Positions 18,797 through 32,345 of a DNA stretch of 64,000 nt are shown here, piece after piece. Below the pieces are notes generated by a model. That model was given only the letters and a program-made list of their open reading frames with translations. It was not told where the DNA came from and made no database searches. The stretch's first letter is position 1; every line of letters begins with the position of its first letter. A program made the position numbers and the translations under genes. Source of the DNA: a virus; IMG/VR virus record IMGVR_UViG_3300020139_000001, positions 1 to 64,000 of that record; one strand, given 5' to 3'.

Positions 18797-19545
18797 TCCT
18801 CACACTATCACAAATCAAGCACCGACGCTTCGTCAAGAGGGATGAGTTCAGGACGAATTGCATCTTCTGTGGAGATAACAAGGAACATCTCTATGTGAAT
18901 ACTGCCAATCAAGTGTTCCATTGTTTTAAATGTGGGGCTAGTGGACGCGTCATGATTGATAGCGACATTCGTATAACTCCTTATACAGCTACATCCCCGC
19001 CAACATTTATTGATCCTACAGAAGATGCAATTCGCTATTTGTCAAGTCGTGGACTAACTATGCAAGAGATCCTCATCTTTTGTCCCAAGTCTAGTCCGCA
19101 ACTTCCACAGTACGTATTCTCCTTCTACTCTCGTACTGCTATTGTTGGTAGAGCTATTGTGGACGACGTTCCGAAGTATCGTATCTATGAGTCTCGAGGT
19201 ACTCGGCTTTGGGGAGTAGAGTACATCGACATACGAAAGCCGATCGTGGTAGTCGAAGGGCTATTCGATTTGTTTGCTGTACGTCGCACATATCTCAATG
19301 TTGTTGCTGTGCTTGGAAAAGCGCTATCGCCGCACGTGGAGAGCTACTTGTCTAACTACCCCTCTCGAGTATACCTATGTTTGGATGCAGATGCATATAG
19401 GGAACAGACACTACTAAGAGATCGACTCCGTAGGTACAAAGAGAACGCGTACTGTGTGTATTTATCCTCGGGTGATCCTTGGGACCATAGGGATAGGTTG
19501 AGGTTCGACCAGATCACACAAGAGGAGGGGGATGTCTATGTTTAA
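18793..19545 (+). CDS. DNA primase (zinc-binding + Toprim domains)
   Basis: CIFC..HLYVN..FHCFKC zinc domain, YLSSRGL, and Toprim motifs VVEGLFD and LDADA. Confidence 0.88.
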   Translation: MILTLSQIKHRRFVKRDEFRTNCIFCGDNKEHLYVNTANQVFHCFKCGASGRVMIDSDIRITPYTATSPPTFIDPTEDAIRYLSSRGLTMQEILIFCPKSSPQLPQYVFSFYSRTAIVGRAIVDDVPKYRIYESRGTRLWGVEYIDIRKPIVVVEGLFDLFAVRRTYLNVVAVLGKALSPHVESYLSNYPSRVYLCLDADAYREQTLLRDRLRRYKENAYCVYLSSGDPWDHRDRLRFDQITQEEGDVYV

Positions 19546-29187: not shown

Positions 29188-29799
29188 ATGTTCAGAGTCT
29201 GGCTACAGAGCGAGGGGGGCCTCCTCTGGGAAGATTTAGGCATCTTCTTAGGGGAGTTGAACGTCCTCCCTCAGTGGGCTAAGTGGAAGACAGGCCTCAA
29301 AATCAGAGGAGTATGGAGAGAAAAGATAGGAAGGCCCTTCGAGTTGCCTGCGTACTGGTACGATGCGTACGGGGGTTGGATATGGGCCTACCCCTTAGAG
29401 AACTACAAGGAGTGGGTAGACAAAGCCCTACTGGACGCAGTAGAGAAGGCATCCAAAGGGTACCAGAAGCTTTTTCTCCGTTCCAAAAGCGCTACATGGA
29501 AAGACCTGGGTTGGGTGAGAGGAGAATCTCTCTTACTGCACGAACTAGACAGGCTAGTTCGTGCAGTAAGGAGAAGGGGGGAGAAATTTCCTTCTCCTTA
29601 CCGGGTGACGACGATACCCGCCTTACACCCCTTTTGGGGATGTAAAGAGATGATGAGCGTCGTAGGACGACGGAGAGAACGTATCGCCCTCTTCGGGGGG
29701 GCGCAATACGTGAAATGGCTACAGAGCGAGGCGCACAATATCGAAGTGATGAGGTACAGGGGAGCTATGCTCCCCTCGCAGATTTGCGGTAACAATTGA
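29188..29799 (+). CDS. Hypothetical protein with an internally duplicated domain (paralog of 26444-27112)
   Basis: Two units: FRVWLQS..WEDLG...YKEWVDKAL and KLFLRS..WKDLG...YVKWLQSEA. SD GGAGG. Confidence 0.7.
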   Translation: MFRVWLQSEGGLLWEDLGIFLGELNVLPQWAKWKTGLKIRGVWREKIGRPFELPAYWYDAYGGWIWAYPLENYKEWVDKALLDAVEKASKGYQKLFLRSKSATWKDLGWVRGESLLLHELDRLVRAVRRRGEKFPSPYRVTTIPALHPFWGCKEMMSVVGRRRERIALFGGAQYVKWLQSEAHNIEVMRYRGAMLPSQICGNN

Positions 29800-31035
29800 A
29801 TGATGATGAAATGGAAGACACTTGCACCGCAGTTAGAGAAGATCGAGAGGACGAGAACGTTGTCTCAGAAGGAACAGCTTCTGAGACAAGTTGCGTCCGA
29901 TCCGCTTGGGAGAGAAGTGTTCAAGTATACTTACTCCCCAAAGCTGAGATATTACATCAAGTCTCCCCTACCAGAAAACTACGAGTCTGGCAAAGAGAGG
30001 CTTGATGTAGAGAGACTTTGGAGACTATATACTCAGTTGCTAGAAGAACTAGCACGCATACGCGTACGAACGATACAGATAGTCACCAAAGTCAGACAGT
30101 TCCTGTCGCAAGTTCCCCAACCATATTTAAAGTGGTGGGTCAGAATCCTCAATCGAGACCTAAGACTAGGTGTAGGAGAGGTACTCATAAAGAAGTACTT
30201 TCCTGGAGTACTTCCCGACATAGAAGTAATGAAAGCGTACCTAGTCACTCAGGTCAAGAAACTCCCACCACAAGTCTATATAGAACCAAAATATGATGGC
30301 GTGCGTCTTATCCTAATACAGGATGAGGACTCACTACGAGTATACACACGTAATGGGAGGAGGCAGGAACAGTTAGAGGATGTACTAGAAAAGTGTGGTC
30401 TTCCATTGGGAGTATATGACAGTGAGGGGTTTCTAAAAGATTGGAACACGACAACGTCTGCTCTAGTAAAGGAACCCCATAAGCTAGTCATATATGTATT
30501 CGACTATATCTCTCTGGAAGATTACAGACGAGGGAAAGGTACATCCTTACCACTCAAACGTAGGAAGAAATTGTTGGCTGAAAAGCTAAAGGGCGTACGA
30601 TGCAGGAGCGTACGTCTTGCGGAGTCGTACCTCATAGACTCTACGGACGTCAACAGGATGTATGAGAGGTTCATTAAAACAGGGTATGAGGGTGCTATGA
30701 TCAAAGATCCGGATTCACCGTACGTTCCGTACAGATCGACATACTGGTTGAAGCTGAAAGAAAGAGACGTTGACGTCTACAGAGTGATCGAGGTGCTACC
30801 TGGTACTGGAAAGTACCAGAATGCCCTAGGAGCGATTGTGGTTAGGGCAAAGGACGGGACTACCTTTCGAGTAGGCTCAGGGTTTACAGATAGACAGAGA
30901 GTGGAATTCTGGAGGAATCCTAACGAGATACTCGGAAGGTGTGTGGAAGTGGCCCTCTTCACTTCCGCACAAAAGATGAGTAAAGCCCCCTTCCCTACCT
31001 TCATAAGACTCCGCCCTGACGTAAGCTCCTGCTAG
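29800..31035 (+). CDS. ATP-dependent DNA ligase
   Basis: Motifs EPKYDGVR, YVFD, EGAMIK, WLKLK, VGSGFTD and FPTFIRLRPD. Confidence 0.93.
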   Translation: MMMKWKTLAPQLEKIERTRTLSQKEQLLRQVASDPLGREVFKYTYSPKLRYYIKSPLPENYESGKERLDVERLWRLYTQLLEELARIRVRTIQIVTKVRQFLSQVPQPYLKWWVRILNRDLRLGVGEVLIKKYFPGVLPDIEVMKAYLVTQVKKLPPQVYIEPKYDGVRLILIQDEDSLRVYTRNGRRQEQLEDVLEKCGLPLGVYDSEGFLKDWNTTTSALVKEPHKLVIYVFDYISLEDYRRGKGTSLPLKRRKKLLAEKLKGVRCRSVRLAESYLIDSTDVNRMYERFIKTGYEGAMIKDPDSPYVPYRSTYWLKLKERDVDVYRVIEVLPGTGKYQNALGAIVVRAKDGTTFRVGSGFTDRQRVEFWRNPNEILGRCVEVALFTSAQKMSKAPFPTFIRLRPDVSSC

Positions 31036-31289
31036 TACCAGTCCTCTCGTGTGCATGAGGAGAGAATGCTCATGTCGCACTGCCCCTTCGCGGCTTGCTG
31101 CCAGTCGCGATTGACCGAAGGCGGTCCAGGTAAAAAGGAGCCGTAGTAGTTTGCTTGTGGCTGAAGTACAATGACGGAGCCGCCACAAGTACACTGAGGT
31201 CTCCCGTGGGGGAGTGATCGTCTATACCTTGGGTATAGACCACGTCCTTAACTACTACACTCCTCTGCACAATTCGAGGAGGACAGGTA
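31036..31289 (+). ncRNA. Unclassified ~255-nt highly structured RNA element (ncRNA or long 5' UTR)
   Basis: Long-range pairings 31041-31062/31260-31284, 31143-31151/31250-31258 and 31152-31161/31182-31191, plus several internal hairpins. No credible ORF. Confidence 0.7.
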
Positions 31290-31291
31290 GC

Positions 31292-31381
31292 ATGAACCCC
31301 AGGACCAAAAGAATTCTGGGCATCATTGCTTACGTGTGCATTATCATAGCACGTATAATACTAGAGATACTTCCAGCGTAA
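31292..31381 (+). CDS. 29-aa hydrophobic peptide MNPRTKRILGIIAYVCIIIARIILEILPA (not in ORF track)
   Basis: SD GAGGAGG at 31276-31282; basic N-terminus followed by one TM helix. Confidence 0.6.
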   Translation: MNPRTKRILGIIAYVCIIIARIILEILPA

Positions 31382-31449
31382 GCAAGATGCTCGAAAAAAA
31401 AGATCTTTCTATCTATAACTTTAACTTTGTAGACATCAGGCGACTAGTA

Positions 31450-31504
31450 CAAAAAAGTCTCAATATAGGAGAGCGTACAGCTCTCCTATATTGAGACTTT
31501 TTTG
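31450..31504. terminator. Bidirectional terminator between convergent transcription units
   Basis: Perfect 25-bp inverted repeat CAAAAAAGTCTCAATATAGGAGAGC-gtaca-GCTCTCCTATATTGAGACTTTTTTG. Confidence 0.9.
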
Positions 31505-31520
31505 CGTAAACGATCGTACT

Positions 31521-32345
31521 CTAATACTCTGACTCTACCTCTGAAGGCTTAGCTTGTCGTAGAATCGTTACAACACTCTGTACTAGATTATCGTGTTTCT
31601 TCCTCAAGACCTCTAGTACAGGACTACCTATTATTATACGATCATAATTAAAGGTGGTGGACAGTTTGCGAGTGTCATAAGAAGAGACGTCGAGGACCAT
31701 AGAAGACAGTGGCACAGTAGACGGATATACCCCTACTAGCAAGATAGCATATGTTAAGTGAATACTGGGTGTGAAAACCAAGACTAATAAGTTTGTCTTG
31801 AAGACGGGAGAACTAGCCACTGTCTTCAAGTCTGGATTCACTGTACCAACACCATAGTACGCAGTCGACCTATCACGATCCACCCTATATAGAGCCCGTG
31901 GAAACTGTCTATATTGTGGAAGACTGTAGTGCCACACTGTGAGCAAATTCAACACTCTACTATACTCGTCATCTACCAATATGAGTTCCACAGAAGAATC
32001 ATACACTGCGCGTGTAGGCATATGGTATGCAGTATCGTTGAATCCTCTCCACACCATTGTGCTCTCTACATTGATATTTTGAAATGAAATTTGTTGTATG
32101 CTAGATAAGAACCACCACCCATAAGAGTCAGCTTCTAATATCCTACCCACTATAGAGTTTTCTGGCACTTCTAAGAGAGCACAATAGAATCCATCTATAG
32201 CAGGAGTAGCTATCTCGGAGGTAACACCTAACTGGTACTCGTGGAAGGATTCCTGAGGACTACTACTAGGAGTAGCAGTACGTACTTCGCTAACATAATA
32301 GGGATCTCTTCTAAGAGAGATACTCTGAAGAATAGGAAAGTCCAT
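31521..32345 (-). CDS. Tail-tube-fold protein (gp19/gp54-like paralog)
   Basis: Aligns by eye with 43847-44521 (..W..., L.GV(Y/W)P..(V/L)P.S...DV....(L/F)..T...D). Adjacent to the sheath gene. Confidence 0.6.
   Translation of the reverse strand: MDFPILQSISLRRDPYYVSEVRTATPSSSPQESFHEYQLGVTSEIATPAIDGFYCALLEVPENSIVGRILEADSYGWWFLSSIQQISFQNINVESTMVWRGFNDTAYHMPTRAVYDSSVELILVDDEYSRVLNLLTVWHYSLPQYRQFPRALYRVDRDRSTAYYGVGTVNPDLKTVASSPVFKTNLLVLVFTPSIHLTYAILLVGVYPSTVPLSSMVLDVSSYDTRKLSTTFNYDRIIIGSPVLEVLRKKHDNLVQSVVTILRQAKPSEVESEY

Follow-up and report, generated by a model that had tools for sequence, protein, structure and literature searches.

A lineage-specific self-complementary insert between a DNA ligase gene and a 29-codon reading frame in a thermophilic T4-like phage

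In the genome of a thermophilic, T4-like phage, a block of GC-rich, self-complementary DNA follows directly on a DNA ligase gene and precedes a reading frame of 29 codons, and the locus raises the question of whether this block is an RNA structure that governs the small gene, an RNA or DNA element of another kind, or an insertion without function. The window, meaning the whole stretch of 64,000 nucleotides that was analysed, covers the first 64 kb of an IMG/VR virus record that is 77.7 kb long and has an estimated completeness of 37%, and near-identical contigs derive from hot-spring and sediment metagenomes, no RNA dataset being among those listed for the locus. The tail sheath, Gat-QueC fusion and ATP-dependent DNA ligase genes mark it as a large, contractile-tailed phage with a 7-deazaguanine pathway. 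A sequence-only reading of the locus had described the gap after the ligase gene as a multi-domain structured RNA, outside any known family, that buries the ribosome-binding site of a hidden membrane peptide.

Locus, predicted fold and mini-gene

The ligase gene is the last of a plus-strand early/middle block of replication and modification genes, and its TAG stop codon (31033-31035) abuts the element. A minus-strand tail operon, running from 31521, converges on the end of this block, and between the two convergent modules lie the 255-nt element (31036-31289), the 29-codon ORF (31292-31381) and a terminator (31450-31504). The element is a GC island, with a GC content of 0.54-0.555 against about 0.43 for the genome, and its G and C, like its A and T, are balanced, unlike those of the flanking coding DNA. 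It would be transcribed as the tail of the plus-strand early/middle operon, and the terminator is predicted to stop transcription of this operon and of the tail operon that converges on it. That the locus is transcribed, that the helix opens, that the ORF is translated and that its peptide has a role are matters that we infer from the features listed here.

29800-31035, plus strand: ATP-dependent DNA ligase gene (Pfam DNA_ligase_A_M and DNA_ligase_OB_2)
31036-31062, plus strand: 5' arm of the closing helix P1, whose helices in the minimum free energy (MFE) fold have pair probabilities of at least 0.9; it carries the anti-Shine-Dalgarno (anti-SD) segment GUCCUC-UCG and the SD-like GAGGAG
31066-31146, plus strand: possible second mini-ORF of 26 codons with three Cys, taken from the ORF list (from GTG 31051) and from reading of the sequence, otherwise unsupported
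31088-31126, plus strand: two adjacent hairpins, one of 8 bp with a 7-nt loop (31088-31110) and one of 5 bp with a 4-nt loop (31113-31126), probability 0.85 each
31143-31258, plus strand: central domain, in which hairpins H5 and H7 are robust while the 9-bp closing helix and the hairpin at 31201-31214 compete with an alternative fold
31260-31289, plus strand: 3' arm of P1, containing the SD GAGGAGG (31276-31282)
31292-31381, plus strand: 29-codon ORF (the mini-gene), with a basic N-terminus followed by a hydrophobic stretch
31326-31385, plus strand: hairpin inside the mini-gene that includes its stop codon, formed by an inverted repeat, pair probability 0.95-0.98
31450-31504, both strands: bidirectional intrinsic terminator, a perfect 25-bp stem with T runs on both strands

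P1 is an interrupted closing helix of 25 bp, formed by 31036-31062 with 31260-31289 and broken by small bulges, and it encloses a multi-hairpin domain; its arms amount to imperfect terminal inverted repeats, with 25 pairs over 27 and 30 nt. The segments that the sequence-only reading had assigned to this outer helix are all where it had placed them, as are GTAGTAGTT and AACTACTAC (31143-31151 with 31250-31258) and TGCTTGTGGC and GCCACAAGTA (31152-31161 with 31182-31191), and reading of the sequence likewise locates CTCCC and GGGAG, a 9-bp hairpin at 31220-31240, AAGGA at 31135, TCCTT at 31245 and two copies of GGAGCCG at 31137 and 31176. On the plus strand, 31036-31295 folds with an MFE of -106.9 kcal/mol and a z-score of -4.33 against 200 dinucleotide shuffles, which answers the proposed shuffle comparison with a better fold than that of the shuffled sequences. 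The closed multi-branch architecture that had been drawn lies only 0.5 kcal/mol above this MFE. The helix that was to close a first inner domain does not survive, having a probability of at most 0.1 and costing 5.5 kcal/mol when enforced. In the second inner domain, H5 (31152-31161 with 31182-31191, 20-nt loop) and H7 (31220-31228 with 31232-31240) stand, with pair probabilities of 0.95 and 1.0; the helix drawn to close that domain (31143-31151 with 31250-31258) has a probability of only 0.38, an alternative fold competing with it, and for the small hairpin at 31201-31214 the value is 0.27.

The closing helix keeps a probability of about 0.9 in contexts of 600-800 nt. In the longer context it is predicted to extend through pairing of UGCU (31028-31031) with AGCA (31289-31292), which would draw the end of the ligase coding sequence and the first base of the AUG into the helix. 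The helices are present in the sequence, are thermodynamically favoured and contain the SD, and by prediction P1 and the main hairpins withstand temperatures of up to about 75-80 C, which fits the hot-spring source. When the hairpin of the mini-gene and the terminator are added, folding is predicted along the entire mRNA stretch 31028-31504.

The ORF at 31292-31381 does encode the 29 residues that had been quoted for it, and GAGGAGG stands 9 nt before its ATG; SDs of the AGGAGG type precede most genes of this phage at spacings of 3-12 nt, and the modal spacing is 6-7 nt. The claim that this SD lies inside the 3' strand of the closing helix agrees with the prediction, in which P1 forms at about 0.9, the unpaired probability is at most 0.12 at five of the seven SD positions, and the AUG is free in the 260-nt fold. 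Set beside 48 ordinary genes with a recognisable SD that were put through the same calculation, the burial is not unusual: the mean unpaired probability of the mini-gene SD is 0.17 against a median of 0.25, and in 27% of those genes the SD is as deeply buried or more so.

The peptide has no match in Pfam or PHROGs and no tblastn match in phages, and its back-translated pattern is absent from viral contigs. When the frame is extended in phase to 55 residues, no protein match covers the peptide part, and three matches cover only the part outside it. The possible second mini-ORF, which has no family match in Pfam or PHROGs, lies 3 nt downstream of the GAGGAG in the P1 5' arm and has an in-frame ATG (31072) 9 nt downstream of that motif; two of its three Cys codons are adjacent, and the frame spans both 5' hairpins before closing with a double TAG. 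On the minus strand, an ORF of 66 residues was considered as a hidden gene and rejected, as it has no SD, no homologue and no family.

Genome background, relatives and strain variation

The minus strand of the element folds as well as the plus strand (-105.4 kcal/mol, z -4.89), and only 3 of the 79 pairs are G-U, so the fold does not identify the transcribed strand. A genome-wide RNALfold z-score scan gives the element -4.59 on the plus strand and -5.52 on the minus strand, which leaves it outside the top 40 when local structures are ranked without overlap, a set drawn mainly from coding DNA. Eighteen plus-strand structures of at least 150 nt reach z <= -4.6, against one in a block-wise dinucleotide-shuffled genome; at the score of the element about one false positive is to be expected on each strand, the genome as a whole is unusually structured, and the element is only weakly above chance.

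Non-overlapping local structures at z <= -5 number 37 on the plus strand, against 2 in the shuffled genome, and lie mostly inside genes; examples of stable local structure are found at 29830-30122 and 18836-19127 of the window and at 66300-66597, 70281-70469 and 71466-71761 of the full record. The best local structure of the record (z -9.7) is a perfect 17-bp palindrome with a 5-nt loop at 29532-29570, inside ORF 29188-29799, a GC-rich frame of 203 codons that has no match in Pfam, in PHROGs or among the relatives. This richness may be a thermophile trait, or it may come from repeat cassettes in the LRR gene region. Because the genome is so rich in stable local structure, strong folding z-scores and predictions of a buried SD are common in it and cannot alone nominate RNA elements; as both the folding energy and the SD burial of this element are unexceptional against that background, the interpretation first given to it is weakened.

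A 67%-identical ligase is encoded on a contig of 2,994 nt, and the loci compared here are those of relatives whose ligase is 45-46% identical. The ligase aligns end to end with these relatives, and an intron in the ligase gene was dropped from consideration, the gene being complete to an invariant last Cys. In all the 45-46% loci no more than 8 nt separate the ligase stop codon from an AAGGAGG, which precedes the ATG of an unrelated gene of 76 codons, and the element is absent from the relatives with a 45%-identical ligase. A relative record of 99 kb shares about 25 genes with this phage, and gene order against it breaks immediately after the ligase (31035/31036). Absence of the element from relatives, together with this break, points to a lineage-specific insertion at a rearrangement breakpoint. 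In the 99-kb relative the ligase sits in the middle of a block and is followed by four other genes. The tube-sheath junction of the same relative has no gap, and a search from the neighbouring tube gene brought up no viral loci related to it. The idea that the element is what is left, as a pseudogene, of the genes downstream of the ligase in the relatives was also dropped, as no tblastx similarity was found.

Variation within the population is slight. High-depth contigs from the source sample differ from the window at only two positions in 1,601 nt, both in hairpin loops (G>A at 31100 in the first 5' hairpin and G>A at 31166 in H5). A 97%-identical strain, whose contigs cover only 31191-31676 and leave 30796-31190 without cover, has no substitution in the last 100 nt of the element while its flanks differ by 2-3%, a weak signal (P about 0.08); it also carries an A inserted after 31234, in the stem of H7, the most stable hairpin, and keeps the frame of the mini-ORF open, with I12V as a conservative replacement. 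Within the terminator of this strain, the paired positions 31455 and 31499 have changed together from A-T to G-C, a compensatory change, with small indels around the loop. Structural constraint would be in line with this variation, which is far too thin to show it.

Much of this would suit a functionless palindromic insert or recombination scar at the rearrangement breakpoint, MITE-like or of the fold-back kind and made of foreign, higher-GC DNA, whose RNA fold would be a by-product of DNA inverted repeats. This is possible, and almost as likely as the cis-acting reading set out below. Relatives with about 25 genes in common with this phage lack the element, which sits exactly at the gene-order break against the 99-kb relative and has a GC content 11 points above that of the genome, but 255 nt of idle DNA would be unusual in a tightly packed phage operon. 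Its terminal inverted repeats of 27-30 nt are imperfect and begin and end in TA, as such an insert might have them, yet there is no clear target-site duplication, the flanks are not direct repeats, no second copy occurs in the 77.7-kb record or in 89 loci, and the terminal-repeat pattern has 0 matches in viral contigs and 2 unpaired ones in 185,579 prokaryote species genomes, as expected by chance. Finally, the element is an orphan in sequence, with folding statistics unexceptional for the genome and two strands that fold alike; against this stands its substitution-free 3' end in the 97%-identical strain, at the weak significance given above.

Possible roles of the element

The expectation that the element would match no known RNA family was borne out, with 0 matches at the gathering threshold over the whole window (Rfam 15). 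At E <= 10 over 30900-31550, Rfam returned only miRNA-type matches to the terminator hairpin and one match with E 8.7 inside the element, and no tRNA or tmRNA was found. Comparison by blastn with phage and plasmid collections gave no homologue of the element, searches with nhmmer, blastn-short and tblastx against the 89 loci and the rest of the record were empty or at chance level, and a covariance model built from the element found no further copy in the 89 loci or in the whole records of five relatives. As no homologue of the RNA or of the peptide was found in the collections searched, there is no covariation to count, and the element is at present a single sequence; were it conserved elsewhere, it would represent a new large structured RNA. 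A retron, an omega RNA and a bridge RNA were each dropped, no partner gene being adjacent.

Double-stranded stalks serve as processing sites in rRNA precursors, in 23S intervening sequences and at the intergenic RNase III sites of T7, and the element may be compared with these as a stable, stand-alone ncRNA of about 200 nt, cut from the tail of the ligase mRNA through the P1 stalk by a double-strand-specific RNase and acting in trans. The predicted P1 is a long-range duplex of more than 20 bp around a compact multi-hairpin domain and is as long as an RNase III stalk (about 20 bp or more), but the architecture inside it is split between two folds. A GC island of this kind resembles structural RNAs in AT-richer thermophile genomes, and the hairpins are predicted to be stable to about 75 C with the repeated GGAGCCG in single-stranded positions; yet no Rfam family was assigned even at E <= 10, the covariance model finds no homologue in the records of relatives, the element has no promoter of its own, and a single occurrence does not make a family. 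Such a processed ncRNA is unlikely.

In translational riboswitches the closing helix usually also sequesters the SD, and a closing helix that doubles as an SD-sequestering element gives the locus the same layout, with a size and branching within the range of large aptamers. Control of the mini-gene by a ligand or temperature switch (a riboswitch or an RNA thermometer), or by a self-cleaving ribozyme of a new class, is nonetheless very unlikely: no riboswitch or ribozyme model in Rfam matches, no conservation was found among the collections searched, the predicted melting of P1 shows no sharp step, the helix staying closed up to about 80 C, and the long, perfect, nearly all Watson-Crick stems look more like a repeat than like an evolved aptamer core. 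Nothing points to a ribozyme or a ligand sensor. It is distinctly improbable that the element is the first member of a new class of large structured RNAs from thermophilic phages, whether sensor or processed ncRNA, that gates a membrane-active mini-protein at the early-late switch.

Since both strands are equally self-complementary, and the site lies at the junction of convergent modules and at the rearrangement breakpoint, the element could also act as DNA, as a cruciform or protein-binding site for replication, recombination or packaging at the boundary of the early and late modules. The chance of this is very slight, as the element is GC-rich, with no iterons and no AT-rich unwinding region, and other long perfect palindromes lie inside genes of this phage, so that the feature is not specific to the site. 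A processed ncRNA is thus placed before a sensor or ribozyme, and these before a DNA-level site, and all are less likely than the cis-acting and insertion readings.

The reading preferred here, and held tentatively, is that the element is a lineage-specific, cis-acting mRNA structure that ties translation of the peptide to ribosomes terminating on the ligase gene, to processing or to an internal start. On this view some 254 nt of GC-rich, self-complementary DNA, particular to this lineage, would have been inserted into the spacer that parts the ligase gene from the 29-codon gene, and any action in cis would pass through the closing helix, in which the segment right after the ligase stop would pair with the SD of the mini-gene. 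P1 would fold 255 nt into a closed knob, with the stop codon (31033-31035) and the start codon (31292-31294) on either side of the helix base, and the helix would thereby restore, across the insert, the proximity of stop and SD seen in the relatives. On a folded read-through transcript the mini-gene would be poorly translated, and it would be translated when the 5' arm of P1 is opened or missing. Three routes may lead there: ribosomes terminating at the ligase stop could open the arm, which would amount to long-range translational coupling; the long duplex could be cleaved; or a transcript could start inside the element and so lack the 5' arm. The internal 200 nt of the element has no role in this model.

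Counted in favour of the cis-acting reading are the strong P1, both alone and in context, its predicted persistence at high temperature, the GC island, the AGGAGG SD, the strong terminator downstream and the confinement of the source-sample variants to loops, and counted against it are the missing homologues, the equal fold of the minus strand, the ordinary z-score, the 27% figure for SD burial, the insertion in the H7 stem and the 9-nt spacing. A promoter-like (sigma-70-like) site was sought in 31036-31290 and none was found, no late-promoter motif could be derived from the upstream regions of this phage, and no minus-strand promoter is predicted near the element; an antisense RNA could come only from transcripts of the convergent tail operon that run past the terminator. 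The element was also considered as the site of a T4 late promoter, an idea that was dropped, TATAAATA occurring once in the window, elsewhere.

Comparison with known systems

Type I toxin mRNAs such as hok, tisB and aapA1 encode hydrophobic peptides of about 30 residues on heavily folded mRNAs, with the SD occluded by a long-range helix. The element resembles them in its hydrophobic peptide of about 30 residues and in an SD placed within a predicted long-range helix. It differs from them in that no minus-strand promoter for an antisense RNA gene is predicted nearby, and in belonging to a phage operon instead of a stand-alone cassette; in Pfam, PHROGs and the tblastn search of phages, the 29-residue peptide shows no homology to a toxin family.

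Correia/NEMIS, ERIC and RUP are MITE-like palindromic elements of bacteria. In common with them, the element lies within 100-300 nt in length, has imperfect terminal repeats of about 26-30 nt with TA ends, is intergenic and co-transcribed, and folds on both strands. Unlike them it is single-copy, and its terminal-repeat pattern makes up no family in the viral and prokaryote collections searched, from which the host may be missing; terminal inverted repeats are thus present, and dispersed copies and a target-site duplication were not found.

Long-range translational coupling operates in the MS2 coat-replicase pair and in rpmI-rplT of the E. coli IF3 operon. There, as is predicted here, the downstream ribosome-binding site (RBS) is closed by a distant upstream segment, which in this phage begins 1 nt past the end of the ligase gene. 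The MS2 and E. coli arms form part of the upstream coding sequence that is being translated, and their pairing is both conserved and backed by genetic tests, whereas at the present locus a terminating ribosome would reach no further than the first 8-10 nt of the arm.

A parallel in layout is offered by T4, in which SD-sequestering helices silence the read-through transcripts of genes e (lysozyme), soc, 49 and I-TevI (PMC3014915). As in those genes, pairing with an upstream segment is predicted for the SD of a small gene that closes an early/middle unit. In T4 the structure is a plain local hairpin that itself contains a late promoter, whereas the arms of the element stand 200 nt apart around a branched domain in which no internal promoter was identified. 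With its SD in a helix, it would count, by prediction only, as an RBS-occluding structure of the T4 type. Should the cis-acting reading be correct, a thermophilic T4-like phage would be applying T4's device of concealing the RBS in read-through transcripts, here across a folded insert of 200 nt, and the locus would also point to a small membrane peptide whose timing matters to the phage.
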